Shown piece after piece: positions 1 to 28,311 of a stretch of 40,000 nt of DNA. The position numbers were made by a program, and so were the translations under genes. Within the stretch, counting starts at the first letter, position 1. Each line of letters begins with the position of its first letter. This stretch comes from Lysinibacillus capsici (GTDB lineage: Bacteria > Bacillota > Bacilli > Bacillales_A > Planococcaceae). The stretch covers positions 17,625 through 57,624 of the forward strand of contig NZ_PXXX01000022.1 of NCBI RefSeq assembly GCF_003367505.1. Direction: 5' to 3'. Below the pieces are notes generated by a model. The model saw only the letters and a program-made list of their open reading frames with translations, ran no database searches and was not told where the DNA came from.

Positions 1-366
1 ATGAGAGTCTACTACGCTAGTATGACGGGAAATGTCCGACGATTCATCCAAAAAACTGGATTAGATACAACTGACATTTCATGTAATCCAAATCCGAAAG
101 AGCCGTTTGTACTCGTCACATACACTTTCGGATTTGGCGCAGTACCAAAAGAAGTTGACGCTTGGTTGACGCAAAATTATAAGTTATTAAAAGGGGTAGC
201 TGTTAGTGGTAATCGTAACTGGGGCGATAACTACGGAAAAGCTGGTGACTTAATAGCTCGAAAATATAACGTACCTCTATTACACAAATTCGAGTTAGCA
301 GGTACAGACGAAGATGTACAAATTTTTAACGAAAGGTTGCTGATGGTTTGCGATACTACGAATTAA
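1..366 (+). CDS. nrdI: NrdI flavodoxin-like protein (class Ib RNR accessory)
   Basis: N-terminus MRVYYASMTGNVRRF fits the NrdI Y-x-S-x-TGN pattern. It overlaps the nrdE start in the usual nrdI-nrdE-nrdF order. The ATG is at the window edge. Confidence 0.85.
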   Translation: MRVYYASMTGNVRRFIQKTGLDTTDISCNPNPKEPFVLVTYTFGFGAVPKEVDAWLTQNYKLLKGVAVSGNRNWGDNYGKAGDLIARKYNVPLLHKFELAGTDEDVQIFNERLLMVCDTTN

Positions 367-2429
367 ATAACGAAATAATGCTACAAGGCGATAAAGATAT
401 TTACCAATATGAAAAAGATCAAGAAGCTACACGCGCTTATTTTTTGGATTACGTTAATAAAAAGACAATGTTTTTCCATAACTTACGTGAAAAACTTAAT
501 TACTTATTTGAAAACAATTATTACGAACAAGAATTATTCGATCAATACACATTTGAACAAGTAAAAGCAGTCTATAAACGTGCTTATGCAAAGAAATTCC
601 GTTTTCCTTCTTTCATGTCCGCGTACAAGTTTTATAATGACTATGCGTTAAAGACAGATGATGGAGAATGTATTTTAGAACGTTATGAGGACCGAGTTGC
701 AGTAAATGCTTTATTCTTTGCGAAAGGTGATCCGCAAAAGGCGATTGATTACGCGGACTTGCTTATCGAACAAGAATATCAACCAGCGACACCAACATTC
801 TTAAATGTTGGACGAAAACGTAGAGGCGAATTAGTGTCTTGCTTCTTAACAGAGGTAGGTGACAGTTTAAATGATATTAATATGGCGGAATCAACTGCAA
901 AACAACTCTCGAAGTTAGGCGGTGGCGTCTCATTAAACTTATCTAATATCCGCGCCAAAGGTGAAGCCATTAAGGGCATTAAAAACGTTGCTAAAGGCGT
1001 CGTAGGCGTTATGAAAATGCTTGACCATGCTTTCCGGTATGCAGATCAAATGGGTACAAGACAAGGTGCTGGAGCAGTTTATTTAAATGTATTCCACGCA
1101 GACATTAACGATTTTCTTGATACGAAAAAAATTAGTGCTGATGAAGATGTAAGAGTAAAAACACTATCTATTGGCGTTGTTATCCCAGATAAGTTTATTG
1201 AACTTGCTCGTGATAACAAACCAGCATATGTTTTTTATCCACATACTGTTGAGAAAGCAACAGGCGAACGGTTCTCCGATATTGACATATCAGCACGATA
1301 TGACGAATTAGTAACTAATTCTGCAATCCGAAAAGACCGTGTTAATCCTCGTCAATTGCTTGAAAAGATTGCAGCATTACGCTTTGAGTCTGGCTATCCG
1401 TATATCATGTTTAGCGACAATGTAAATAAAACACATGCTTTAAATGGCACGATAAAATTCTCTAATCTATGTAGTGAGATACTGCAACGATCTGAACAAT
1501 CTACTTATACAGATTACGGACAACAAGATGAAATAGGGTTAGATATTTCTTGTAATTTAGGGTCGTTAAATATTGCGAATATCATGCGATTAAAAGACTT
1601 CGAACGTGCAGTATCATTAGCAACAGATGCCTTAACAGTTGTGTCAGAATCAACGAATATTGCTAATGCTCCAGCAGTTTCAAAAGCCAATAAGGAAATG
1701 CGTTCAATTGGTTTAGGAGCTATGAATTTACATGGTTATCTTGCGAGTGTAGGTATTAGTTACGAAAGTCCAGAGGCGATCGAATTTGTAGATGTATTTT
1801 TTGCAGCAGTCAACTATTACTCTATTAAACGATCAATGGAATTGGCAAAACAAAAAGGGTCTGTATTTACTGGGTTTGAACAATCGAGTTATGCAGATGG
1901 TAGTTACTTTAAATCCTACTTAAACAATAGTTATTTGCTAAAAGACGAGTATATCAAATCATTATTTGACGGGATCGTGCTACCAACAACGGAGGACTGG
2001 CTAGAGTTAGCTTCTGATGTAGCTAAGTATGGCTTATATAATGCTTATCGCCTTGCAATTGCTCCAACAGGTTCAATAAGCTACGTACAATCAGCGACAG
2101 CAAGTGTTATGCCGATTATGGAACGGATTGAAGAACGTACTTATGGCAATTCAAAGACATACTACCCGATGCCTAACCTCTCTTATAAAACGTGGGCTTA
2201 CTACAAAGAGGCGTATGAAATGGACATGCGCAAAGTCGTCGATTTAATTGCAACGATTCAACGCCATATAGATCAAGGCATTAGTTTTACGTTATTCTTA
2301 CGTGACACAATGACAACACGCGATTTAACAAAGATTGATTTATATGCGCATCACAAAGGAATTAAGACGCTTTACTATGCACGAACAAAAGATACGGGCG
2401 CAGATATTTGTCTAGCGTGTCAAGTTTAA
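348..2429 (+). CDS. nrdE: Ribonucleotide reductase class Ib alpha subunit
   Basis: 693 aa, colinear with Bacillus NrdE as I recall it (FRFPSFMSAYKFYNDYALKT, QPATPTFLNVGRKRRGELVSCFL, NLCSEI, APTGSISYVQSATASVMPI, C-terminal CLACQV). TTG start. Uninterrupted, with no intron or intein. Confidence 0.95.
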   Translation: MRYYELNNEIMLQGDKDIYQYEKDQEATRAYFLDYVNKKTMFFHNLREKLNYLFENNYYEQELFDQYTFEQVKAVYKRAYAKKFRFPSFMSAYKFYNDYALKTDDGECILERYEDRVAVNALFFAKGDPQKAIDYADLLIEQEYQPATPTFLNVGRKRRGELVSCFLTEVGDSLNDINMAESTAKQLSKLGGGVSLNLSNIRAKGEAIKGIKNVAKGVVGVMKMLDHAFRYADQMGTRQGAGAVYLNVFHADINDFLDTKKISADEDVRVKTLSIGVVIPDKFIELARDNKPAYVFYPHTVEKATGERFSDIDISARYDELVTNSAIRKDRVNPRQLLEKIAALRFESGYPYIMFSDNVNKTHALNGTIKFSNLCSEILQRSEQSTYTDYGQQDEIGLDISCNLGSLNIANIMRLKDFERAVSLATDALTVVSESTNIANAPAVSKANKEMRSIGLGAMNLHGYLASVGISYESPEAIEFVDVFFAAVNYYSIKRSMELAKQKGSVFTGFEQSSYADGSYFKSYLNNSYLLKDEYIKSLFDGIVLPTTEDWLELASDVAKYGLYNAYRLAIAPTGSISYVQSATASVMPIMERIEERTYGNSKTYYPMPNLSYKTWAYYKEAYEMDMRKVVDLIATIQRHIDQGISFTLFLRDTMTTRDLTKIDLYAHHKGIKTLYYARTKDTGADICLACQV

Positions 2430-2441
2430 GGAGGATTCTAC

Positions 2442-3401
2442 ATGACTATTTATACGGCTGCGAACTATGCGGTAGATGACGACTCATTTACCCAGGCTTT
2501 TTTAAAGCAGAATCATTCACAATTCTGGCTACCCGAAGAAATATCGCTAACACCCGATTTATTGACTTGGAAAGCTCTTTCAAAAGAAGAACAAAAAGCA
2601 TATATGCGTGTACTTGGAGGATTGACTTTACTTGATACAGAACAAGGAGTTGGTATACCTCGATTAATTCCTCATATTAAAGGGCATCAACGACAAGCGT
2701 TGCTTACCTTTATGTCAGCAATGGAAAACTCGGTCCATGCCAAGTCGTACTCTAACATCTTCTTAACTTTGGCAAATCGTGAGGAAATTAAAGAAGTATT
2801 CGATTGGGTACGGGAAAATCAGTATTTGCAAACAAAAGCTGACGTTATTGTGACGCAATATAAGGCAATCAAAAACAATGATGATATTTCACTTTATAAG
2901 GCGCTAGTTTCGTCAGTATTCCTTGAATCGTTCTTATTTTACAGTGGTTTCTACTACCCACTGTATATGTACGGACAAGGAAAATTAATGCAGGCTGGGG
3001 AGATCATAAACTTAATTATTCGTGATGAAAGCATACATGGTGTCTATGTCGGTTTATTAGCGCAAGAAATCTATAACCGACACTCATCAGATGTACAAAG
3101 CGAATTGTCTGCGTGGGTACATGAGACACTCGAAAAGCTATATCAGAACGAGGCGTTATATACAGCAGACATTTATGATGATGTCGGTTTGACATACGAT
3201 GTACTTAATTTCGTTCAGTACAACGCAAATAAGGCATTATCTAACTTAGGATTTGACGCTTATTACACACATGACAACTTTAATCCAATCGTTTTAAACG
3301 GACTATCAACGAAAACAAAATCGCATGATTTCTTTTCAATGAAAGGTAATGGGTATAAAAAAGCAACTGTCGAACCAATTCAAGACTCGGACTTCTATTA
3401 G
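2442..3401 (+). CDS. nrdF: Ribonucleotide reductase class Ib beta subunit
   Basis: 319 aa with metal-ligand motifs ([21 protein letters not shown]) and a C-terminal acidic DSDFY tail. SD ggagg lies upstream. Confidence 0.95.
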
Positions 3402-3415
3402 AAAGGAACGATTCT

Positions 3416-3670
3416 ATGGTAAAAGACATCGAGCATCCCGATATAACGCACGCATTGCGAACAGGCCATGATCGGGAAACCTGGCGTAATATACAAAACG
3501 CAAAGCTGCTTACGGAATCAGTACCACGTGATTATTACGGAGACATTATTGACTTAAAGAACGACCATTACGTCGTGATTCCGACAGGCTATAAGATATT
3601 GCACAGTAACTTACAACGTTATTTGGAAGAAAGAAAAGGCTTCGAATTTAATTACGTATTCAGCGATTAG
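3416..3670 (+). CDS. Hypothetical small protein (possibly YqaI-like)
   Basis: 84 aa ORF tightly packed in the operon. The C-terminal pattern YYGD..(D)HYV.....L...LQRYLEE..GFEF resembles the skin/PBSX-type small protein YqaI, from memory only. Confidence 0.55.
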   Translation: MVKDIEHPDITHALRTGHDRETWRNIQNAKLLTESVPRDYYGDIIDLKNDHYVVIPTGYKILHSNLQRYLEERKGFEFNYVFSD

Positions 3671-3681
3671 GAGGAAAACAC

Positions 3682-4335
3682 ATGGGACTGCCTAAAGATA
3701 CGATGTTATACGGATTTGCTGAAAAATTGACGCGAGAACAATGTGAGTATGTCGATAGTATTTTTGATAATCAAGTAACGATTGTAAACGCAAAGGCTGG
3801 GAGTGGTAAGACTACACTTGCAGTTGCCTGCGCAGCACTACTCGGAAAACCTCTCGTATATATTTTCGCTCCAGTCGAGGAAGGCAAGATGGGTTTTCGT
3901 CCAGGTACTCAACGTGATAAAGAAGCTGAATACTATCAACCATTAATTGACGCTCTATATGAAATCGGCGAGAATCCGTCAAAAGTAATCTATGATGCTG
4001 AAAATATCGAAGCACAAAAGCGTGGCGACGTTTGGGTGTATCCTCGGAGTCACATCTTCGCTCGCGGGACGAATATCAAGGATTCGACGGTGATTATAGC
4101 TGAGGCCCAGAATTTTACGCGAGGTGAACTTAAAAAGGTCCTTACGCGAATTCATGATAGCTGTACGGTAATTATCGAAGGACATGACGGCCAGAACGAC
4201 TTGCCAAATCCGAATAAGAGTGGATTTGTACCGTATATCGAACATTTAGCAGCTTATGAATTTGTAAATGTCGTGCGGTTAAAGAAGAACTTCCGAGGTC
4301 GTTTATCGACTATTGCGGATGAAATGACTTGGTAG
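3682..4335 (+). CDS. PhoH-like ATPase
   Basis: Walker A GSGKTTLA, Walker B-like VIIAEAQN, 217 aa, typical phage PhoH size. SD aggagg lies upstream. Confidence 0.85.
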   Translation: MGLPKDTMLYGFAEKLTREQCEYVDSIFDNQVTIVNAKAGSGKTTLAVACAALLGKPLVYIFAPVEEGKMGFRPGTQRDKEAEYYQPLIDALYEIGENPSKVIYDAENIEAQKRGDVWVYPRSHIFARGTNIKDSTVIIAEAQNFTRGELKKVLTRIHDSCTVIIEGHDGQNDLPNPNKSGFVPYIEHLAAYEFVNVVRLKKNFRGRLSTIADEMTW

Positions 4336-4347
4336 GAGGGGATTTCA

Positions 4348-4560
4348 ATGAAACGGTATACAATTGGCTTAAACGTAAACGATTCGTCAGAATTATTACA
4401 AGCAGCTACGGACATTCAAGCGTTCATTGATACGTTAGGTGTCGCAAGTGAGCTAGACATACAAGTGAGTGTTAATCCGTTATTGTCACAATCTGAAAAT
4501 ACTAACGTTATCGGGTTTGCGATGAAAACTGAGGAAGATTACGAGGAGGATGAAGAGTAA
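4348..4560 (+). CDS. Hypothetical acidic protein
   Basis: 70 aa ORF with SD (aggagggg) and an acidic C-terminus EEDYEEDEE. Its stop overlaps the next start. Confidence 0.55.
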   Translation: MKRYTIGLNVNDSSELLQAATDIQAFIDTLGVASELDIQVSVNPLLSQSENTNVIGFAMKTEEDYEEDEE

Positions 4561-4973
4561 TGAACGAACAACAAGCACAAAAAATCGAGAGAGTGGCAAA
4601 AATGTCGCCAATTAACGATAAACTAACAGAAATGTATGATATGCAAACGAAACTAGACCAACGCATTATTACCGAGCGAGGTATATCAAAAACGACTGAC
4701 GAGTGGGTGGTCGGATTAACTATCGCAATGGAATCTGAGATTGACGAGATTCGTCGCGAGGTTAATTGGCGTTGGTGGAAAAATAGTAAGCCGATTGATC
4801 AAACTGCTTTGCAAGAAGAAATCGTGGACGTGTGGCACTTCTTATTATCTCTTTCTAGAGTAGTCGGAATGTCTCCGGACGATATTCATCGCATTTACAT
4901 GGAAAAGAACGCTGAAAATCACGCAAGGCAAAGTGGTACTAGCGAAAAGGAAGGGTATGAGGTATCGAAATGA
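4560..4973 (+). CDS. Dimeric (all-alpha) dUTPase / MazG-like NTP pyrophosphatase
   Basis: Motifs ESEIDEIRREVNWRWWK and EEIVDVWHFLLSLS are typical of dimeric dUTPases of Firmicute phages. Confidence 0.75.
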   Translation: MNEQQAQKIERVAKMSPINDKLTEMYDMQTKLDQRIITERGISKTTDEWVVGLTIAMESEIDEIRREVNWRWWKNSKPIDQTALQEEIVDVWHFLLSLSRVVGMSPDDIHRIYMEKNAENHARQSGTSEKEGYEVSK

Positions 4974-5344
4974 GTGGATGTCCGAATGAATTCGGTATTT
5001 ACAGCAGAATGGTGACTTTAAAAATGCCAAATCATCTCTTTAAAAAGAACGGTGGGTACTATGTTGATAAAACGGAGTGCGATATTGACCAATGTTTAGT
5101 TGATGAAATCCGATTCTTATGGAGTAAAGGAGTTGTCACAACAGGTTCTTGTTGTGGACATGGAATAAATCAAGGAATGATTAATGTGTTAGAGTCAAGC
5201 GTAAATAAAATGATTGAATTAGGTTATGAATTACTAGACATTCCAGAGCCTTTCTGGAAATATTCGTTTATACCAAAATCTAAACACAAACAGGAGAAAC
5301 TCAATGACGAAAATCGAACGCAAAATAAACGTACTAGACGATAA
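4970..5344 (+). CDS. Hypothetical Cys/His-rich protein
   Basis: 124 aa with the motif TGSCCGHG. It overlaps the thyX-like start by 41 nt. No family recognised. Confidence 0.55.
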   Translation: MSGCPNEFGIYSRMVTLKMPNHLFKKNGGYYVDKTECDIDQCLVDEIRFLWSKGVVTTGSCCGHGINQGMINVLESSVNKMIELGYELLDIPEPFWKYSFIPKSKHKQEKLNDENRTQNKRTRR

Positions 5345-6032
5345 AGGGTATGTAATGATCCACGATGTACTTGGAACAGATTTAACGGTAGCAAATGCGG
5401 CTCGCGTAAGTTACGCAAAGAAGTCCGCAACATTGACCGATGGTGATAAGCGATTAATAGACTTTCTAGCGCGGGAGGGGCATACTTCGCCCTTCCGCCA
5501 CGTGATCGCACAATTCGAATTTAATGCGCCATTGATGGTCGCTAGGCAACATTGGAAATACGTTGTAGGATCGTCAATGCTCGAAGCTACTGGAGATAAT
5601 ATGGATGCTTGGAACGAATCGAGTCGTCGTTATGTAACGGAAGAACCGACATTCTACGTACCACAGCCATATGAATGGCGATCAGCACCAGAAAACAGTA
5701 AACAAGGTTCAGGCGATATAGTTCGTTTTGAAATTGGAGAATCTGCAACAAGTGCGCTCATACAACATGTTGATGTATGCATTAAATTGTACGAGGACGC
5801 TATTTCTAGCGGAATTTGTGCTGAGCAAGCACGCCTATTCTTGCCAGCATACGGAATGTACGTTAAATACTACTGGACAGCATCGTTACAAAGCGTCTGT
5901 CACTTCCTAAATCAGCGTTTAGCTCATGATTCTCAAGTTGAGATACAAATGTATGCGAAGGCAGTTCTTGAACTTATAAAACCGCATTTTCCGATCAGTG
6001 TTGAAAAATTAGTATCGGAGACTTCCGAATGA
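5304..6032 (+). CDS. thyX: ThyX-like flavin-dependent thymidylate synthase homologue (divergent active-site motif)
   Basis: Colinear with ThyX (GHTSPFRH, APLMVARQ, NESSRRY, ASLQSVCHFLNQRLAHDSQVEIQMYA). The canonical RHR position reads KYV and is followed by a ~13-aa insertion. SD caggag lies 7 nt upstream. Confidence 0.8.
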   Translation: MTKIERKINVLDDKGYVMIHDVLGTDLTVANAARVSYAKKSATLTDGDKRLIDFLAREGHTSPFRHVIAQFEFNAPLMVARQHWKYVVGSSMLEATGDNMDAWNESSRRYVTEEPTFYVPQPYEWRSAPENSKQGSGDIVRFEIGESATSALIQHVDVCIKLYEDAISSGICAEQARLFLPAYGMYVKYYWTASLQSVCHFLNQRLAHDSQVEIQMYAKAVLELIKPHFPISVEKLVSETSE

Positions 6033-15896: not shown

Positions 15897-17453
15897 ATGC
15901 AAGAAACGGGAACTGTCACCTACACATATGACGCATTTAAACCTGGCGAACAATTTCCGCCAGCTAACGCAATTGAACGTATAGCAAAGTATCGACGTAT
16001 GAAAAAGTTATATGACGGAAAACAGTCCGAACTATATGATAGAGCAACAGCGCTCCTAAAAGATACGCCACATGCTAAACAATTACAGTCACTCTATATT
16101 GCAGCCAATATTGCCGACATCATTGTTACGAAAGCAAGTGATTTACTTGTCGGAGAACCACCAATCTTCGATAGCGGATTAGCAGACGATACGGAGCAAC
16201 AATTTGCAATTAACTCCTACGTTGAGGAAAACGATCTTGTTAAGTTAATTCACGAATCTGCGCTTGCTAATGGTTATCGTGGCGATTCATGGATTAAAGT
16301 TCGTTACGACTATCGCCAGGACTATAGCGCTCTAACAATGAGAGGCCTACCTATCCCAGACGATGCGGTAATGGAGCCTATTATCGAACATATTGCCGCA
16401 GACTGTGTATTCCCAATTACAAGTGACGGTAACGTGAAGAAGTTTAAGTCAGTAGTCATTGCAAGCGTAGAATGGGTAGTTTCTAAAAAGGAAGAAACAC
16501 CGTACTTAAACGTTGAGCACCACCTGCCAGGCTATATCATTAATGAGCGATATAAACTTACGACTTATGAAGGTGGAGTTGACAACAAATACGGCTATCC
16601 AGTACAGCTTTTCTTAATTGATAAAAAGGTCAGCGATAGCGAAATTGTTCCGACAGGAGTTCCGCACTTACTCGTTCATCACATTCCATATAAATCAACG
16701 GACGACCAATGGGAGGGTAAAGGAACATTAGAAGTGCTAGAAACGATTTTAATTGCGATAAATGACCGATTAGCGCAGCTCGATTATGTTCTATGGAAGC
16801 ATAGTGATCCGACAGCGTATGGACCAGAACTAGGGACGCATGGTAACGCAAGATTAACAGGCGCTTATATTCCTTTAACTGCCGAAGATAAAACACCAGG
16901 CTATATGACGTGGGATGGACAGTTGAATAGTGCATTTAAAGAACTTGAAACATTGATTGGCATGGCGTTTCAAATCGCAGAAACTCCGCAATGGCTATTC
17001 GGTACTGTACTTGGAGATCAAAACGCTGGAGGAACAGGCACATCGCATACAGATGGCGCTGCTATTAAAGCGCGCTTTATGCCAATATTGACGAAAGTAG
17101 CTCGTATTAGAACGCACTACGACCGCGCTCTACGAGATGCACTATATAACTGCCAATTGCTTGATATAGCGCATGGCGAAGCTAATTTCGAAGCAGTCTA
17201 TCCGGTTATTCACTGGCAAGATGGCTTACCTCATTCCGAAAAAGAGCAAGCCGAAATTATGGCAATTCGTACTGGCAATAAGCCGACAATTGACGTAGCT
17301 ACAGCGATTAAACGTATGGACGGTGTAGACGACATTCAAGCTACCGAAATCATGACGCGGATTGATGCCGATACAGAGCGTGAAGTTGGTACAGTCGATG
17401 CTTCCATCTTTAATGACCCTTATACAGAAATGGACGAAGGGACTGACGCCTGA
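15897..17453 (+). CDS. Portal protein
   Basis: 518 aa immediately after terL, with size and position typical of a portal. The strong SD at 15851-15860 is better placed for in-frame ATC 15867 (see findings). Confidence 0.85.
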   Translation: MQETGTVTYTYDAFKPGEQFPPANAIERIAKYRRMKKLYDGKQSELYDRATALLKDTPHAKQLQSLYIAANIADIIVTKASDLLVGEPPIFDSGLADDTEQQFAINSYVEENDLVKLIHESALANGYRGDSWIKVRYDYRQDYSALTMRGLPIPDDAVMEPIIEHIAADCVFPITSDGNVKKFKSVVIASVEWVVSKKEETPYLNVEHHLPGYIINERYKLTTYEGGVDNKYGYPVQLFLIDKKVSDSEIVPTGVPHLLVHHIPYKSTDDQWEGKGTLEVLETILIAINDRLAQLDYVLWKHSDPTAYGPELGTHGNARLTGAYIPLTAEDKTPGYMTWDGQLNSAFKELETLIGMAFQIAETPQWLFGTVLGDQNAGGTGTSHTDGAAIKARFMPILTKVARIRTHYDRALRDALYNCQLLDIAHGEANFEAVYPVIHWQDGLPHSEKEQAEIMAIRTGNKPTIDVATAIKRMDGVDDIQATEIMTRIDADTEREVGTVDASIFNDPYTEMDEGTDA

Positions 17454-18733
17454 TGCGTGAAGTACCTCAGCCAGATTACGATTATGATGTTAAAAAGATA
17501 CAAAAAGCTTATACAAAAGCATTAAAAGACGTAAAAAATGAACTTAATAACTTATTTCTTACGGATTTCGAGAGCGCGCAGATCATCGCCGTTGAAAAGT
17601 CTATCCGTAACATATTATCCGACATTGAAAAATACGGAAATGAATGGTCTGCCGTCGCCATAACTAAATCAGCAACAGAAGGTATCGCATCGACTATTTA
17701 TACTTTAGAGCTTACTAAGTCTTATGAGGATGCTCTTAAAATTGTAAAATTTAATACGGTAAATAAACGACTTATTGCTGCAGCTATAGCAGATACTCAG
17801 TCAGATTTACTCGCAATAACGCAAAACATGGAGCGACAAGCAAAGATAGCAATTAGAAAAGCAACGGCCGAAGCCATGCGCGCTAAACTTACGTCTGGTA
17901 TTAACGCTACATCTGACATATCAAAAGAGATACGGGAACGTATCATTAATGCCACCGGCGTTGCGATTATTGACTCTAGGGGGAATCGATGGAAAGTTGA
18001 AAACTACGCAGATGTAGTCGCCAGAACTAATATGATGAACGCGCATCGCGAAGCAAGTATTAACGAAGCGTTATCGGAAGAGTCTTACTATGGTCGAATT
18101 AGTCGTCATGGAGCTAAGGACGCTTGCAGAGAATATGAAGGTAAAATCGTAAAATTAGTAGCAGATGCACCTGGAGATTACCCTTACATTGGCGATATAC
18201 CAAGAAAAAAACTGTTCCATCCTCGTTGCAAACATTTGGTCAGCCCTTTGCGTGATCCAGAGAAGTATAATAACCCAAACGTATGGGAGAAAAAACCAAC
18301 AGAATCAACACTTAAACATGCTAATCTAGGAGACTTTACGATAAAACCTCGCACACAAGAGATTTCTAAAATGAAAAGTGGAGGGCATGGTCAAGATAAT
18401 ATTAGTTTCTTAAAAGAAAATAATATTGATTACAATATTGAAAAGATTTTTTCTAACGGAGTTCGCATAGGTAACGTTCCTAGTCATAAGTCTAAAACAA
18501 AGAAAACTGGAGTAGGGCAGTCATGGTTTCCTGAAAATTGGACTAAAGATGATATTGAAAAAGCAGGTTTACATGTAGCCAACAATCCTGATAATAAAAT
18601 TGTTAACGGATTTCAAATATTTGGCGTTTACAAGAATATTGAAATTGGTGTATTTTTAAACTTAGACAATAATAAAGTTATCAGTACTATTTTCCCTACA
18701 AATAAGCAATCTCATTTAGAGGAAGGTGATTAG
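17453..18733 (+). CDS. MuF/SPP1 gp7-like head morphogenesis protein fused to a C-terminal EndoU-like toxin domain
   Basis: The MuF core ends at FHPRCKHLV (~aa 270). C-terminal ~150 aa carry SGGHGQ...KSKTKKTGVGQSWFPENWTKDDIEKAG...ISTIFPT, resembling bacterial EndoU-type RNase toxin domains. DNA from ~18290 is visibly more AT-rich. Confidence 0.8.
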   Translation: MREVPQPDYDYDVKKIQKAYTKALKDVKNELNNLFLTDFESAQIIAVEKSIRNILSDIEKYGNEWSAVAITKSATEGIASTIYTLELTKSYEDALKIVKFNTVNKRLIAAAIADTQSDLLAITQNMERQAKIAIRKATAEAMRAKLTSGINATSDISKEIRERIINATGVAIIDSRGNRWKVENYADVVARTNMMNAHREASINEALSEESYYGRISRHGAKDACREYEGKIVKLVADAPGDYPYIGDIPRKKLFHPRCKHLVSPLRDPEKYNNPNVWEKKPTESTLKHANLGDFTIKPRTQEISKMKSGGHGQDNISFLKENNIDYNIEKIFSNGVRIGNVPSHKSKTKKTGVGQSWFPENWTKDDIEKAGLHVANNPDNKIVNGFQIFGVYKNIEIGVFLNLDNNKVISTIFPTNKQSHLEEGD

Positions 18734-19958: not shown

Positions 19959-21044
19959 ATGACAACGTTACAGAATCAAATCGTAGGTAAAAAAGAATCA
20001 GTTACAGACGAATTATTACTTTTAAATCCACACCAAACACCAATGATTAGCTTAGTCGGCTTTGGTGAACCTGTGTCACAAGTAGAGCATCAGTGGTTTG
20101 AGGACGAAATGTTTGCAGATGAAACAACTGCAACAGCAGCTTTAGTTGATGCAACAACAATCACAGTTGCAGACGGTTCTATTTTCGAGCCTAAGCACGT
20201 TGTAAAAATCGGTGAGGAGTTACTTTTAGTTACAGCTATTAATGCAAACGAATTAACAGTTACTCGCGGATACGCAGGAACTACAGCCGCAGCCGTAGTA
20301 GATGGTGCTAAAGTAGAGTTCCAATTTGTTGAAGGTGTAGAAGGAGCAGATGCTCGTAAAGCACGTTACAAATCTCGTAAACGTGTATCTAACTTAACGC
20401 AAATTTTCGATGAAACAGTATCAATTTCAGGTACAGCCGCAGCAACTTCTGAATACGGCATTGATGATCTTTACGAATACGAAAAACAAAAGAAACTATT
20501 AGAGCTTGCATTACAACTTGAAAAAGCAGTAATCAACGGTGTGAAATACGAATCTCCAGACGGTAAAGTACGTCAAACAGGCGGTATCCGTAACTTTATT
20601 AAGACAAATGTAATTAATGCTAACAATGCTACATTAACGCTTAATATGTTGGGTGATGCGTTCCAAGCTATTTATGAGGCAGGTGGTTTCGCAACAGGCG
20701 GTAACTACAAAATTGTTGTTGGAGCTAAACAAAAGCGTGCTATCTCGGCTGCTGACGTTGACAAGATCAATATCACTCGCCAAGATAACGGTCGTGGTCA
20801 AGTTGTGGATCACTTCTTATCAGACTTCGGTTCTGCAGAAATCTTACTAAATCCTAACGTTGGTCCAGACGAAGTGTTTATCATTGACGCTAATCGTACA
20901 GAAATCAAGCCGTTAAAAGGTCGCGACTTTGCACATACGTTCTTAGGTATCAAGGGAGACTATCTTGAAGGTCAGATTGTTGGTGAGTTCTTATTAGAGT
21001 TCAAGCAAGAGAAAGCGCACGCTCGCATTAAGGGCTTAAAATAA
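19959..21044 (+). CDS. Major capsid protein
   Basis: 361 aa. Called from its position after the scaffold, its high-expression context (SD aaagggg), and a hairpin downstream. Confidence 0.8.
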   Translation: MTTLQNQIVGKKESVTDELLLLNPHQTPMISLVGFGEPVSQVEHQWFEDEMFADETTATAALVDATTITVADGSIFEPKHVVKIGEELLLVTAINANELTVTRGYAGTTAAAVVDGAKVEFQFVEGVEGADARKARYKSRKRVSNLTQIFDETVSISGTAAATSEYGIDDLYEYEKQKKLLELALQLEKAVINGVKYESPDGKVRQTGGIRNFIKTNVINANNATLTLNMLGDAFQAIYEAGGFATGGNYKIVVGAKQKRAISAADVDKINITRQDNGRGQVVDHFLSDFGSAEILLNPNVGPDEVFIIDANRTEIKPLKGRDFAHTFLGIKGDYLEGQIVGEFLLEFKQEKAHARIKGLK

Positions 21045-21106
21045 TCGCTGTTATGGCGGTCTTGCACCGCCTTTAACGCATTATTATTAACGAAAGGAGC
21101 GCAATC

Positions 21107-21319
21107 ATGGCGAAATACGAATCGCGTTATAAATCGTTAGGCTTTTACGCTAATGGCGAGCTAAAGCGATTTAATAACGGCACTTATGTAACGGAAGATA
21201 AGGACGAAATTACCGTCTTAGACGGATTAGCAGACGTAACTCGTGTCGATGAAGAACCAAAAACGGAGGCAAAGCCTGTAATTAAAGCGCCAGCTAAACG
21301 CACAGCCTCCGCTAAATAA
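21107..21319 (+). CDS. Hypothetical head-module protein
   Basis: 70 aa with SD aaaggag and a Pro/Lys/Ala-rich C-terminus. Confidence 0.55.
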   Translation: MAKYESRYKSLGFYANGELKRFNNGTYVTEDKDEITVLDGLADVTRVDEEPKTEAKPVIKAPAKRTASAK

Positions 21320-21335
21320 TACGGAGGTGTGGCGT

Positions 21336-21722
21336 GTGGAATGGAATTTAACAGAAGCATCCGAATATGTAACATATAATGCGGTTGATAATGAAGACTT
21401 TTTAGCATCTGACGATACGCAGAAGATACGCTTTTTAAACGTCGGTGAACGTACTCTGCGTCGAGCCTTTAAAGGTTATACGATTCCAAACGAAGCGTGT
21501 TACTTATTTGCTTGCGTGCTTAACGCTAACTTTAATGATACAACTGTAATGGCGCAGCGAGGCATTGCCGGATTCAGTATCGATGGCATTTCGTTCACCT
21601 TCAAGGATTGGGCGAAGAAAGAGTTAGACGATCTTATTACAGATGACATTCGCGACATAATCGCAGAAGCTAATCAGGATATCGACAGCAATAATGGACG
21701 CGTAAAGTGGGTGACGCTCTAA
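21336..21722 (+). CDS. Head-tail connector (gp6-like) protein
   Basis: Called from position. GTG 21336 lies 8 nt after SD ggagg, whereas the ORF-track start at 21327 overlaps the SD. Confidence 0.55.
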   Translation: MEWNLTEASEYVTYNAVDNEDFLASDDTQKIRFLNVGERTLRRAFKGYTIPNEACYLFACVLNANFNDTTVMAQRGIAGFSIDGISFTFKDWAKKELDDLITDDIRDIIAEANQDIDSNNGRVKWVTL

Positions 21723-22921: not shown

Positions 22922-24004
22922 ATGGCGAATGGAGGAACGTGGGAAGCTACGTCTTTACCAGTCCGTCCAGGACTATATATTAATTTCCGCGATGCAGCAC
23001 TTGCATCTATAACGGGCGGTTCACGCGGAACAGTAGCAGTACCGATTTTTAATTACACAGGCGGTACAGCAGAGGCAGGAAAATTCTACACAATTGAAAC
23101 CGTATCAGACGGTATGGAGTTAGTTGGTAGCGCAAATGCAACACCAATTACACGCATTTTACAAGGCGGGGCTAAAGAAGTATTAGTATACGCGGTGCCA
23201 GCAATCGGTGAAAGCGAAACAGCGACAGAACAATACGCTAATTTACGAGATACGTTCTCGGTGCAAGACTTTAACGTCTTTGTATATCCTACTGTAATCG
23301 ATGCAGCAGAACAGACAGCGACTAAAGCATGGGTAGAGAGTTGTCGTGAAGAAGGTAAACACTTTATGTATGTAGCTGGCGGAGATGCAGCGAGCGATGC
23401 TGATATTACAGCGGGCAATGCGCGTTCTGTTATTTTGAAGGATTCGTATATTGTCAACTTGGTTACTGGCGTAGTTTTAGCAGACGGAACCGAAGTTCAA
23501 TCGGCTGATTATGCGCCGTACATCGCGGGACTTATCGCAGGAACACCGATTAACAAGTCTATTACTTATGCAGAGTTACCACTTGCTGACGTTACCCTGC
23601 GACTTAAAAACTCGCAAGTAGAGACAGCGTTAAAATCTGGATCACTCGTAATCATCAAAGACGGCAACAAGGTCCGTATTGAGCAAGGCATCACAACGGA
23701 CTCAAATGCTGGAGAACGTGGTAAAATCCGTACGACTCGCGCTAAACAAGCTGTCGCTACGGACATTCCGTCTACTGCACGCGATTCCTACATTGGTAAA
23801 GTCGATAATAATCCGAATGGCCAAGCATCATTAATTGGTGCTATTAAGGCTTATCTCGAATTGATGGAGACGGACAATGTACTAATGAATCCAGAAGTAA
23901 TGCTCGATTCTCGATATAAGTCAGAAGGTGACAAAGTATTCATCGCTGTTGCTTATACGGAAGTTGACAGTATGGAACGAATTTTCTTGACGATTACTGT
24001 TTAG
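22922..24004 (+). CDS. Contractile tail sheath protein (XkdK-like)
   Basis: 360 aa in the sheath-tube-chaperone-TMP order. N-terminus GTWEATSLPVRPGLYINF is typical of PBSX-type sheaths. Confidence 0.85.
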   Translation: MANGGTWEATSLPVRPGLYINFRDAALASITGGSRGTVAVPIFNYTGGTAEAGKFYTIETVSDGMELVGSANATPITRILQGGAKEVLVYAVPAIGESETATEQYANLRDTFSVQDFNVFVYPTVIDAAEQTATKAWVESCREEGKHFMYVAGGDAASDADITAGNARSVILKDSYIVNLVTGVVLADGTEVQSADYAPYIAGLIAGTPINKSITYAELPLADVTLRLKNSQVETALKSGSLVIIKDGNKVRIEQGITTDSNAGERGKIRTTRAKQAVATDIPSTARDSYIGKVDNNPNGQASLIGAIKAYLELMETDNVLMNPEVMLDSRYKSEGDKVFIAVAYTEVDSMERIFLTITV

Positions 24005-24043: not shown

Positions 24044-24475
24044 ATGGTAATGAAATCAACTGATGCCGTATCAGGTACGTTTGGTAAGCTGATCCATGAT
24101 GGACAATGGCTCACAAATGTATACGGTGTTGAAGTGAACGGCGAAATCAACTACGAAGATGTTAAACGTTCGGGTACTCGCGCAAAAGGTAAGAAGGCGA
24201 TGGACTTCGAATTTACTGGAACGATTAAGTCTTACAAGATGAGCAACGAATTTGCGAAGAAGATTGGCCAGATTACAGATGATACTAAAGGCGCGTTTGT
24301 AACAGAGCTTATTGTCGCATTAGAGGATCCAGAAAATGCGCCAGTTGGTGCGGAGAAAATTCGAATTAAGGGTGTACAATTTACGAATATTCCCGTAATC
24401 AACTTTGAGCATGGCGCATTAGTTGAAGAAGAACTGCAGTTTGTTTGTGAAGGTTACGAGTACATCATGATTTAA
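24044..24475 (+). CDS. Tail tube protein (XkdM-like)
   Basis: 143 aa following the sheath gene, with strong SD aggagg. Confidence 0.85.
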   Translation: MVMKSTDAVSGTFGKLIHDGQWLTNVYGVEVNGEINYEDVKRSGTRAKGKKAMDFEFTGTIKSYKMSNEFAKKIGQITDDTKGAFVTELIVALEDPENAPVGAEKIRIKGVQFTNIPVINFEHGALVEEELQFVCEGYEYIMI

Positions 24476-24552: not shown

Positions 24553-24945
24553 ATGGACGCATTACAAGCATTATTAGGCGCAAAGCCAGCAACGGAAATT
24601 ACGAATCAAGTGAAAATCAAACGTCTAGGAACAGAGTTTACGATTAAGGCGCTTACTGGCGAGGACATTGATAAGATTCGAGATCAAGCAACTGGGCCAA
24701 TGAAAAACGGTAAAAAAATAGAGATGAAAGTTAATGAGGAAGAAGTTGCACGCTTACTTATCGTTAAATCTGTAGTTGAACCTTCATTTTCTAGCCCACA
24801 ACTACTAGAACATTTCGGAGCATCTGACGCAGGAGAATGTGTTCAAAAAGCACTACTAGCTGGTGAAATTGCTACATTACAAAACGAAATTTTAATGTTA
24901 TCCGGCTTTAATGACGAAGAAGAAATCGAAGAAGTAAAAAACTAA
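24553..24945 (+). CDS. Tail assembly chaperone (XkdN-like)
   Basis: 130 aa between the tube and tape measure genes, with an acidic C-terminus. It ends at a slippery heptamer. Confidence 0.75.
   Translation: MDALQALLGAKPATEITNQVKIKRLGTEFTIKALTGEDIDKIRDQATGPMKNGKKIEMKVNEEEVARLLIVKSVVEPSFSSPQLLEHFGASDAGECVQKALLAGEIATLQNEILMLSGFNDEEEIEEVKN
24936..24942 (+). promoter_or_regulatory. Candidate -1 programmed frameshift heptamer A_AAA_AAC
   Basis: The zero frame reads gtA AAA AAC taa. A -1 slip enters the open frame 24948-25121, which has no SD of its own. Confidence 0.55.
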
Positions 24946-24947
24946 TA

Positions 24948-25121
24948 ATGGCGGGTGGCGAAGCGTTTTTGCTACACCGCATATGGCAAGATAAACATGT
25001 ACTGCCTCATGAAATTTACACTCTAGATAGACGTTATAAGAATTTCGTTTACGCATCAGAGTTACTTGTAATTGAGGAAGAAGAAAAGGCGGAAAAAGAA
25101 CGTCAGAAAGGAGGAAAATAA
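24948..25121 (+). CDS. Chaperone -1 frame extension (or small XkzB-like ORF)
   Basis: 57 codons open in the -1 frame relative to 24553-24945, ending 1 nt before the TMP start. Confidence 0.55.
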   Translation: MAGGEAFLLHRIWQDKHVLPHEIYTLDRRYKNFVYASELLVIEEEEKAEKERQKGGK

Positions 25122-25715
25122 TTGGCTGTAAATTTGACAGCTGTGTTTCGTCTACGGGATCAAGGTTCTTCGCGCTTACGACGAATCACGGATATGATGA
25201 ATCGAATGAACAGAGCAGGACGTACAGCGAGTGAGGGCATATCGAGAGTACAAACAGCAACTAATCGTCTAGGAAGTACTGTCTCCACAACATCTAATCG
25301 TATGAATGGATTTGCGGCTAGTGTAAGTCGTTTGCACGTCGGATCGAATGGACTGAGTGCGTCTTTCGGTGGGTTACAAAGCACTTTAATTGGACTCGCT
25401 AGCGCATATATGACTGTACAAGGAGCAGCGAAAGCGTTTGATGCAACAATCGGAGCTGCGGCACGTTACGAGCAATCAGAGGTTGCAGTTAAAGCAATAT
25501 TTAATGACCCGAAAAAGTCAGATGCTTATTTGAAGATGGTTGATAAGATGGCGATAGACAGTCCGTTGCTTAATAGTGGAGATATGCTAAAGTCGTCTAA
25601 AACGCTTGTAGCAATGACAAAAGACGTCGGGGATTTAGGTAAAGCATGGTCAATAATTGAACGTCTGATGGTTCTTGATCCTACGCAAGGAACTGACGGA
25701 GCAGCATTTGCCCTT
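25122..25715 (+). CDS. Tape measure protein, exon 1 of 3
   Basis: TTG start 6 nt after SD aaaggagga. The ORF runs into a stop only after the predicted 5' splice site (U25715 paired with G25722 in P1). Confidence 0.8.
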
Positions 25716-26009
25716 AATTAAGGGGGCAGTAAAAGTGGGTTATATGCTGGAACGAACCTTAGAGCCTAACGTACCAAAGTGTAAAAATCGTTAGGATTGG
25801 TCAATCAGCAGGGAAGGCGACAACCAAGCCACCCTCAACGACTATCGGAATATCCGACTATTATATAGGTGACTATATAATAGAACCCCACCGTGTATAT
25901 CGTGAGATATGCTAATGATATAGTCTGTTCTTTACGTGAAAGCGTAAAGAGTGTAGCAGAAATGACTACACCCTAACTTTAGTGAGTTAGAGTAACAAAA
26001 GGCAAAGAG
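25716..26009 (+). ncRNA. Group I intron (ORF-less) in the tape measure gene
   Basis: P1 is gccctt/gggggc with a U-G wobble at the splice site. Q-like AATCAGCAGGG pairs with upstream TGCTG. R-like CTCAACGACTAT and S-like GATATAGTC form a 6-bp P7. Hairpins carry GNRA loops (GTGA, GAAA). The terminal G is at 26009. Confidence 0.85.
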
Positions 26010-27758
26010 ATGTGGCAAGGAGACGCACTTTCGATGGTTGAGCGTTTTGGATTGAATAAAGGTGAGCTAAACGACATTAAAAAAATGGCAATTCCAGAAC
26101 AAATAGCGGAAATTAATAAAATGCTTAATAAAATGGGTATCACCCAGGAAACTGTAAATGCAATGGGCGAAACTACACTCGGCTATTGGGCGCAGATTCA
26201 AGAACGAGTCGGTAAGTTTTTACGGCAAGTTGGTAATCTCGGTAACTCTAAACTTGGTGAGACACTAGGAAAAATCGTTGAAGCCTTCGATAATATCGAC
26301 CTAGACGGCATGGCAAAAAAGTTAGACGCCAAGCTCGCAGGATTAGTCGATAATGCAATCGCTTTTGGAAAGTTTGTCTGGAAATGGCGAGAGCCAATCG
26401 CTTATATTGCAGGAGCACTTACTGCAGCAATGGGCGCATTTGCCATTGTAGGCGTCATTGCAGCGTTAGCAAATCCAGTTACGTTAATCGCTGCAGGAAT
26501 AGCCGCAGCCGCAGTCGGTTTCAAGGCGCTCTATGATAATAGTAAGGTTTTCAGAGGGTTTATAAACGGTATAAGAAATGCTGTAAAAACGGTTTCAAGG
26601 ATATTTGAGTCTATGTTCATACTAATTAAAGGTGGCTTCAAGGATTATGGTAAAGGACGAAAAATTTTAGAAAATTTAGGACTGGAAGAAAAACAAATAA
26701 AAACAGTTATCCGATTTGCTTATGGCATTAAAGGCGCATTTGATAAGGTGAAAGCTGTTTTCAAAAGTATTTCGTTTATCTTTTCAGGACAACATAAAGC
26801 ATCTATCGACATACTAAAAAGTGTAGGATTTTCTGATGAAAAGATTACTAGTATACGTAAATTCGGAAATAGCCTAAAATCAGCTTTTGACACAGTAGGA
26901 AACATTTTCGGTGGTGTAGGTTCTATATTGTCAGGTGAGGGTTCAGCAGACTTAATAGCTACATTAGGGCTGTCTCCCGAAGTTGCTTCCGTAGTAGACA
27001 GTGTTATCAATAAAATTACATCTAAGATAAAATCACTGTGGAAAGCATTTAAAATGAATGGAGTCAGTGGACTCGTCGATGCAATTTACGGAAAAGGTAC
27101 ATTTGAAGCGATTAAAACGAAATTTGAAGAAGTCAAAGCATATATAGCCGAAAAAGTGACGCAATTTAAAGGTGTATTTGATCGTCTAAAAGAAGCGTTC
27201 TCTAAAGCGTGGACTACTATTTCTGACATCATCTCAAATGTGTGGTCGATTATTGAGCCGTATTTGAGTGGCTTTTGGAACATTTTACAGGTCATTGGGG
27301 ATATCGCAATGAAGGTTTTTGACAACATCATCGCTCCAGCAATCTCGTTTCTAGTTCAACTATTTTCAACGCTGTGGTCAATCGCGAAGCCTGTCCTTGA
27401 ATTATTAGGAATCGCATGGGAGGCGCTCTCAGCAATCATTAAATGGGCATGGGACAACGTGTTGGCTCCGTTAGTTGACTTCATTTTAACTGGCGTTAAA
27501 AACGCGTTAGAAGGATTTTCAGGAGCACTATCTATCGTTCAAGGATGGTTCGAAACACTTAGTGGTTGGATTTCGACTGCAAAGGGACATGTAAAGGACT
27601 TTATCGATTCAATTTCTAATGTTAAATTACCTGGTTGGATTACAAAGGGAATCAGCGCAGGAATAAACTTTGCCGGTAATTTTATTGGTGTTGGGAATGG
27701 GAAGGGTGAGTCTCCGAAATCAAATTATCATGGATTAGATTATGTGCCGTATGACGGT
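26010..27758 (+). CDS. Tape measure protein, exon 2 of 3
   Basis: It continues the TMP sequence (WQGDALSMVERFGL), has a central hydrophobic Ala/Gly-rich segment, and ends at ...LDYVPYDG. Confidence 0.8.
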
Positions 27759-28110
27759 TATTGTATAGCCGCTTAATAGAGAGATCTATTTCGAATAATC
27801 AACCAAAATCGGTAAAAGCTAAGTTGTGAAATCTAATTAACCGAAATTTTACAATATGCTAATACCGAGGTAAGCGAGAACATCACTCGCCACCGTAACG
27901 CATAGGGGTTGAGCGATATGAGAGCAAAAATATCCCCACGAGTGGTTGACACCTTAACGTTAATTTAATGTAGGTGAAAATGTATGCTGAGCCGGGTACG
28001 AATAAGAAATTAGTAAGCGCCTATCGATAAGATATGGTGCTTTTTGACGTACCGTAATGCGAGGAAACTCCCGGAAGTAGAGGATAAAAAGCCTTTACGA
28101 TAACAAACTG
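27759..28110 (+). ncRNA. Second group I-like intron (ORF-less) in the tape measure gene
   Basis: P1 pairs exon CGGU with GCCG (27768-27771), with U27758-G27768 at the splice site. Intron UAU/AUA continues the stem. The 3' exon begins UAU, allowing P10 with the same AUA. S-like AAGATATGGTGC can pair with CACCGT. The terminal G is at 28110. Confidence 0.7.
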
Positions 28111-28311
28111 TATTCGGCACGACTACACAAAGGCGAACGCGTTTTAACTGCGCGAGAAAATCGTGATTATTCAGACAGTAACAGCGGTGGTCCAGGCAGT
28201 GGTGTTTTAATCACTGGTAACTCGTTTACAGTACGTGAAGAAGCCGACATTGAGAAAATTGCGTACGGTATTGCAAAACTAATCGAAAAGGAGCGTGTTC
28301 AGATTGGCTAA
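28111..28311 (+). CDS. Tape measure protein, exon 3 of 3
   Basis: It encodes YSARLHKGERVLTARENRDY..., the conserved TMP C-terminal motif that normally follows DYVPYDG. Confidence 0.75.
   Translation, partial: YSARLHKGERVLTARENRDYSDSNSGGPGSGVLITGNSFTVREEADIEKIAYGIAKLIEKERVQIG

Follow-up and report, generated by a model that had tools for sequence, protein, structure and literature searches.

The window, which is the whole 40,000-nucleotide stretch of Lysinibacillus capsici DNA analyzed here, covers the phage tail module within a myovirus-type Lysinibacillus prophage. On the 5' side of the tail module lie nrdE, nrdF, phoH, a dUTPase gene, thyX, a C5-methylase gene, and the terminase, portal, and capsid genes, and the open reading frames (ORFs) across the surrounding structural module are intact. 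The ORF at 17453-18733 encodes a head morphogenesis protein in which a Phage_min_cap2/MuF-like region (residues 42-236) is joined to a bacterial EndoU nuclease domain at the C-terminus (residues 298-416), a fusion that resembles the MuF-type polymorphic toxins of temperate phages. The genes nrdE, nrdF, and thyX are classic group I intron targets in Bacillus phages and prophages; in the window (within 348-3401 and 5304-6032) they are uninterrupted ORFs. The tail sheath and tail tube genes are followed by an ORF for an XkdN-type tail assembly chaperone, and directly after it comes a 57-residue ORF (24948-25121) that ends at the start codon of the tape measure protein (TMP) gene. Two chaperone ORFs are the usual layout and are often joined via programmed frameshifting; the stretch 24553-25121 is arranged in this manner. 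Next come two long ORFs and then the genes for a LysM protein and a YqbQ-like protein (Table 1).

The two long ORFs belong to one interrupted gene, which encodes a phage tail tape measure protein. The spliced protein matches PHROG families 991, 58, and 1272, among others, with E-values down to 9e-26, and the annotated TMPs of phages D6E and phiCT453A align over the first junction. The gene occupies the position of a TMP gene, between the gene for the XkdN chaperone on its 5' side and those for the LysM and YqbQ proteins on its 3' side. When the TMP region was compared by megablast with the phage collection, nothing matched. The first ORF has the C-terminus ...GAAFALN*, and the second has the N-terminus MWQGDALSMVERFGL; the original prediction that the frame stops after ...GAAFAL(N*) and resumes further on is borne out by the list of ORFs, with the break at 25721 and a gap of about 290 nt. 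The exon-2 ORF is 100% identical to a Lysinibacillus capsici protein publicly annotated as 'hypothetical protein'. Removal of two introns from the gene is predicted to give a single protein of 848 residues.

Table 1. Positions of the tape measure gene, its two introns, and the neighboring tail genes (coordinates of the window, except in the last line)
Feature	Position	Strand	Details
Tail sheath gene	22922-24004		
Tail tube gene	24044-24475		
XkdN-type tail assembly chaperone ORF	24553-24945		
Two long ORFs of the TMP gene	25122-25721 and 26010-27776		next after the chaperone region; then LysM protein and YqbQ-like protein
TMP exon 1	25122..25714	+	TTG start after GGAGG Shine-Dalgarno; 3' end ...GCC CU
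Group I intron 1	25715..26002	+	288 nt; RF00028 47.3 bits; missing from allele L001
P1 hairpin	25708..25729	+	exon UUGCCCU (25708-14) : guide GGGGCAG (25723-29); 7 bp
UAA stop in frame with exon 1	25719..25721	+	intron nt 5-7; 5' of ribozyme core
UAAAA linker P1-P3	25730-34	+	5 nt
P3	25735-39/25887-91	+	encloses P4 through P7.2; MFE fold, covariation
P4	25745-50/25805-10	+	UGCUGG/UCAGCA
P5	25754-58/25799-802	+	
P5a	25765-71/25789-95	+	
P6/P6a	25811-18/25828-34	+	
P7	25840-45/25920-25	+	6 bp GACUAU/AUAGUC; pseudoknot with P3; presumed guanosine-binding site
P7.1	25846-49/25853-56	+	
P7.2	25858-68/25873-83	+	11-bp hairpin, GUGA loop
P8	25895-901/25906-12	+	GUGA loop; inside P7
J8/7	25913-19	+	
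P9	25930-37/25942-49	+	8-bp hairpin, GAAA loop
P9.1	25951-58/25963-71	+	GAAA loop; loop GCAGAAAUGAC also kept in L147
P9.2	25973-79/25984-90	+	
Terminal guanosine (omega-G) of intron 1	26002	+	4 nt past UAACAA motif
TMP exon 2	26003..27758	+	start C AAA GAG AUG: Leu codon completed, then K E M W Q G D
Co-conversion-like exon flanks of intron 2	27740-27758 and 28111-28230		
Group I intron 2	27759..28110	+	352 nt, no ORF; core unrelated to that of intron 1; P1 wobble U27758.G27768; omega-G G28110
TMP exon 3	28111..28311	+	YSARLHKGERVLTARE... up to stop codon
L147 intron (on the L147 contig)	2605-2926		shares 7-bp P1, UAAAA, P3, P2-less layout, P9.1 loop with intron 1

The segment between the first two exons is, with a probability of roughly 0.88, a self-splicing group I intron of IA type, without an ORF of its own, in the TMP gene of this myovirus-like prophage. 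Four observations carry this reading: the family of its fold, covariation in its helices, alleles from which exactly this segment is absent, and a spliced product that is collinear with uninterrupted homologues. An ORF-less group I intron in the TMP gene had been predicted beforehand, with a scan by the Rfam group I model RF00028 named as a check, and it is strongly backed by that model, by the covariation seen with a second covariance model (R1), and by intron-less alleles. The RF00028 match runs end to end over model positions 1-253 and scores 47.3 bits, with an E-value of 6.9e-11 in a 701-nt scan and 3.9e-9 over the whole window. The curated gathering cutoff of the model is 50 bits, and intron 1 falls 2.7 bits short of it; thus, a default Rfam scan of the window at the gathering threshold reports nothing, and the E-value mode is needed. 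The whole window holds only two RF00028 signals, both inside the TMP gene.

The secondary structure points to the same family. The MFE fold of 25700-26025 has a z-score of -5.05, none of 100 shuffled sequences folds as well, and this fold alone gives P1, P3, P4, P5, P5a, P6, P7.1, P7.2, P8, P9, P9.1, and P9.2. P7 crosses P3, and this crossing is the pseudoknot that defines the group I fold. The P4 pairing with UGCUG, the 6-bp P7, the 11-bp hairpin with a GUGA loop (P7.2), and the 8-bp hairpin with a GAAA loop (P9) had all been proposed by the original prediction and are present at the positions in Table 1. The placement of P7.1 and P7.2 between P7 and P3', together with the P9.1 and P9.2 extensions, is the arrangement of phage IA introns. 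A P2 helix is absent: P1 and P3 are just 5 nt apart, as they also are in a related intron in a DNA polymerase III alpha gene (L147, described below). Intron 1 is therefore of IA type and P2-less and not a strict member of the subclass IA2 (for subclasses, see PMC3984707).

Model R1 was built from the 193-nt core of intron 1, from P3 to P7'. A pattern over both P7 strands retrieved at least 120 stretches each from the viral and the genome collections, and the P7 motif is common to more than 240 intron loci among the matches listed; R1 has full-length matches in more than 140 loci among these P7-motif matches. The alignment of the 34 strongest matches was fitted to the model, and in it 44 of the 50 core pairs have changes on both sides, a result that none of 500 shuffles equals. 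Standard pairs fill 90.7% of the cells in the same 34 matches, compared to 35-46% after a shift of the 3' partners by 1-3 columns. Double changes occur in 5/5 pairs of P3, 7/7 of P5a, 4/4 of P7.1, 11/11 of P7.2, and 7/7 of P8, while P4 is invariant. Since the relatives were preselected by their P7 sequence, the covariation is uninformative for P7, and the result covers the other helices.

Intron 1 is too short, at 288 nt, for a homing endonuclease ORF, and the plus strand of 25715-26002 contains no ORF of at least 40 aa. A scan of 26 ORFs of the window, which covered the small ORFs in part, revealed neither an HNH nor a GIY-YIG domain. Two other kinds of interruption were considered and rejected: an intein, since the break lies at the RNA level and comes with stop codons, and a programmed frameshift, since the gap measures 288 nt and has a ribozyme fold.

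The boundaries of intron 1 are 25715..26002, with the 5' splice site after U25714 and G26002 as the terminal guanosine. The last two bases of exon 1, CU, are the first two bases of a leucine codon, and exon 1 is collinear with uninterrupted homologues. At the junction, all 18 uninterrupted homologues carry two further residues, typically KE, as in ...FALKEMWQGD... or variants of equal length, and the AAA GAG at 26004-26009 encodes K E in frame ahead of the ATG. G26009 had been put forward as the only G that restores the frame; in fact, 29 combinations of U and G restore it, and FALKEMWQGD results only from U25714 and G26002. The intron-less allele L001 reads GCT TTA AAG GAG ATG TGG at the junction and is without exactly those 288 nt. 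P1 contains two adjacent U.G wobbles, U25714.G25723 and U25715.G25722, and the first is hence as legitimate a splice-site pair as the second. The splice sites of the L147 intron are fixed by the DnaE motif DALG|LENIGVI; its P1 has 7 bp, and the 3' strand of this helix starts with the wobble G and runs directly up to UAAAA and P3. By this layout the wobble G in the window is G25723, which is independent support for the same 5' site. In a second independent observation, the spacing of G26002 to UAACAA equals that of the terminal G of intron 2, whose position is fixed by intron-less alleles. The KE of the homologues, the L001 allele, the enumeration of U/G pairs, the L147 layout, and the UAACAA spacing together lead to an intron of 288 nt at 25715..26002.

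The original prediction had placed the same group I intron at 25716..26009, that is, after U25715 and up to G26009, so that the protein would read ...FAL|MWQGD..., and these boundaries are now very unlikely to be correct. They restore the frame, U25715.G25722 is also a U.G wobble of P1, and P10 favors neither option, as its pairing with exon 2 looks weak by eye at both candidate 3' sites and was not used as evidence. On the other hand, they miss the 5' splice site by 1 nt and the 3' splice site by 7 nt and would delete the conserved Lys-Glu, two residues of all 18 homologues, even though AAA GAG sits there in frame. They also disagree with the intron-less allele, which reads TTA AAG GAG ATG, and with the L147 homology, which puts the wobble G at G25723, the start of the 7-nt strand before UAAAA. 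In addition, G26009 is located 11 nt past UAACAA, compared to 4 nt for the terminal G of intron 2. The pairing of GCCCUU with GGGGGC in P1 thus stands, whereas the splice-site wobble U25715/G25722 gives way to U25714.G25723, which fits the homologues. With the corrected boundaries, the predicted spliced junction is GCCCU|CAAAGAGAUG, as against GCCCUU|AUGUGG for the earlier ones. The predicted tryptic peptides differ accordingly: ...LMVLDPTQGTDGAAFALK and EMWQGDALSMVER for the corrected junction, and ...GAAFALMWQGDALSMVER for the earlier one.

Both introns of the window end in UAACAA followed by 3 nt and G (25993-26002 and 28101-28110), and the L147 intron (2915-2926) ends in UAACAAUAUACG. This shared 3'-terminal motif may have a role in P9.0 or in the positioning of the splice site.

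The catalysis and the timing of splicing, as well as the route by which intron 1 arrived at its site, are inferred. Transcription of the late tail operon would run through the intron, and ribosomes translating exon 1 would halt at the UAA at intron nucleotides 5-7, which would free the ribozyme to fold. Group I introns of bacteria and phages generally have such an in-frame stop codon ahead of the ribozyme core (PMC2504315; PMC3984707). The ribozyme would then fold into P3-P9 with its P3/P7 pseudoknot, and the exon end UUGCCCU would pair with the guide GGGGCAG to form P1. A free guanosine held in P7 would attack after U25714; subsequently, G26002 would take the same P7 site, and the 3'-OH of exon 1 would attack after G26002. 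The joining of ...GCC CU to C AAA GAG AUG... would yield an mRNA that encodes ...FALKEMWQGD.... Intron 2 would be excised likewise, resulting in one tape measure protein of 848 residues. It is conceivable, though unlikely, that the excision of the two TMP introns also serves to set the timing or the amount of tape measure production.

A second alternative takes the segment for a decayed relic that can no longer splice, in which case the TMP would be produced in pieces (25122-25721, 26010-27776, and so on) or the prophage would be defective. The AAAGG before the ATG at 26010 could act as a weak ribosome binding site, and the Rfam score lies under the cutoff. Nevertheless, this alternative is highly improbable. 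All core helices are intact, and in a comparison with the metagenomic allele L003 the intron is better conserved than the exons: it has 2 changes in 288 nt, against exon identities of 98.1% and 95.9%. In the homologues, the M of MWQGD is a conserved internal residue and no start codon, splicing gives a perfectly collinear TMP at both introns, and the ORFs of the neighboring structural module are intact. It is scarcely conceivable that the segment is an insertion of another type (an IStron remnant or a MITE, for instance) or a spacer that divides two genuinely separate genes. Some C. difficile loci, probably IStrons, do contain related ribozyme cores (PMC4227781), but here there are no transposase and no terminal repeats, the insertion is nucleotide-exact relative to other alleles, and the group I architecture is complete, including a P1 to which the upstream exon contributes one strand. 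Readings of this kind, a transposon remnant among them, are effectively refuted by the RF00028 match, the exact absence in L001, and the covariation.

Intron 1 is accompanied by a second TMP intron at 27759..28110, which was absent from the original prediction. Its RF00028 match scores 28.9 bits with an E-value of 3.3e-5. The exon-2 ORF runs to ...VPYDGYCIAA* at 27776, and the next ~520 nt contain no ORF. With intron 2 excised, the protein reads ...VPYDG|YSARLHKGERV...; the intron-less alleles L246, L254, and L255 have this very sequence, and L003 is collinear with it. The predicted spliced junction is GACGGU|UAUUCGGCA. L001 has an intron homologous to intron 2. Model R1 does not detect intron 2, and the two introns of the window are thus not close relatives. 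Among the 18 aligned homologues, 7 end in ...DGYCIAA*; because intron 2 was not recognized, at least 7 database TMPs are truncated at ...VPYDGYCIAA*. Intron 2 is common and routinely yields truncated gene calls.

The exons next to junction 2 differ in their affinities from the rest of the gene. Here, the identity to the close intron-less allele L003 falls from ~1.0 to 0.65-0.75, and the identity to the distant intron-bearing allele L001 climbs from ~0.5 to 0.88. This shift indicates that flanking exon sequence moved together with the intron, which is the signature of homing or recombination at the DNA level. Separately, a block of ~47 nt at the 3' end of intron 2 (28062-28108) has short counterparts of 80-97% identity in L001 and in several unrelated viral or MAG loci, namely L096, L009, L112, L147 (6143-6195), L006, L201, and L106. 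Such a block could represent a conserved module at the 3' end of a different subfamily of introns.

Intron 1 occurs at the same site in L003 with 99.3% identity, and one of the two changes in that allele turns the P1 pair U25708.G25729 into U-A. It was found in none of 17 further TMP loci, a count biased against intron-bearing alleles because 2 of the 4 search peptides span the junction. Its closest relatives among the matches listed are ~76-78% identical over P3-P6 and lie in other genes. The best R1 match among those listed, with 124.5 bits, is the L147 intron, which is unannotated and interrupts the gene for DNA polymerase III alpha on a Gastranaerophilales MAG contig; P8 is apparently missing from it in a pairwise alignment. 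The downstream exon of that gene (2925-4862) seems, from its translation, to hold a mini-intein that extends from CVARGEKVLMGDG to VVHNC. Acinetobacter phage YMC13/03/R2096 (L244) follows with 74.7 bits and Bacillus phage vB_BceM_WH1 (L245) with 49.8 bits. The former has two R1-type cores (74.7 and 30.1 bits, at 21034-21562) in the split terminase region, in the unannotated gap between an HNH gene and the gene for the terminase large subunit, and the latter has its DNA polymerase III alpha annotated as three CDSs, with an R1-type core in one gap. The cores of both phages look like unannotated introns. The Acinetobacter copy adjoins an HNH endonuclease gene, whereas none was seen near intron 1 of the window.

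The relatives in L147, the Acinetobacter phage, and phage WH1 differ from intron 1 in their host genes and guide sequences. The related cores in terminase, DNA polymerase III alpha, and TMP genes therefore represent one ribozyme lineage in different genes with different guides. It is possible, if doubtful, that this P2-less lineage without an endonuclease jumped between the three genes across distant hosts by changing only the 7-nt guide. If true, such jumping would be natural evidence of RNA-level retargeting via reverse splicing and not of endonuclease homing.

Intron 1 is an unannotated further example of an already described type of intron, and the general knowledge of group I introns is unchanged by it. 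Its main value is modest and lies in annotation and in a natural series of alleles with and without each intron. Since both introns score below the Rfam gathering cutoff, standard pipelines miss them and fragment an essential tail gene. The alleles come with intron 1 alone, with intron 2 alone, with both introns, or with none, and this set provides natural controls that are usable for studies of gain, loss, and co-conversion. A literature search found no report on introns in the TMP genes of Lysinibacillus phages.

The introns of T4 td and Staphylococcus phage Twort orf142 are the classic phage IA2 ribozymes, and their self-splicing was demonstrated experimentally. They have the same order of elements as intron 1 (P3-P4-P5-P6-P7-P7.1-P7.2-P3'-P8-P7'-P9-P9.1-P9.2), and similarly have GNRA loops on their peripheral helices and are located in protein-coding phage genes. 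In contrast to intron 1, they have a P2 helix, td carries the I-TevI ORF, and the host genes are those of nucleotide metabolism or of unknown function, not TMP genes.

With respect to tail genes, an intron in a minor tail protein gene of mycobacteriophages BAKA and Optimus was described by Pope et al. in 2013, with splicing confirmed by RT-PCR (PMC3706429). Like intron 1, it is small (265 bp), group I-like, without an endonuclease, and located in a tail structural gene. Unlike intron 1, whose splicing is predicted, it belongs to a high-GC actinobacteriophage, and its type was assigned tentatively.

The closest known systems are those of Tourasse & Kolstø (2008), who reported group I introns at three TMP sites in prophages of B. 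cereus, B. anthracis, and B. weihenstephanensis, and a relative, identified by BLAST, in the tape measure gene of Lactobacillus phage JCL1032 (PMC2504315). Terminase and tail-tube genes also contain introns in that study, and an endonuclease is present in only two of the phage introns (PMC2504315). The original claim that an endonuclease-less intron in a structural tail gene is unusual therefore fails, as mostly endonuclease-less introns in prophage TMP genes were reported there (PMC2504315). The introns TMP-IVS1, TMP-IVS2, and TMP-IVS3, including that of B. anthracis lambdaBa01, resemble those of the window in their subclass IA, in their location in the TMP of a Bacillaceae prophage, and in the presence of several introns per gene. 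They also resemble them in mostly lacking a homing endonuclease gene and in having related cores retargeted via changes in P1 (PMC2504315). In contrast to them, intron 1 has no P2. The host TMP differs as well: by description, the TMP-IVS introns interrupt siphovirus TMPs of >1200 aa, whereas the present ones interrupt an XkdO-like myovirus TMP of ~848 aa in Lysinibacillus. Multiple, mostly endonuclease-less TMP introns are thereby extended from the siphovirus-type prophages of Bacillus to a myovirus-type element of Lysinibacillus.
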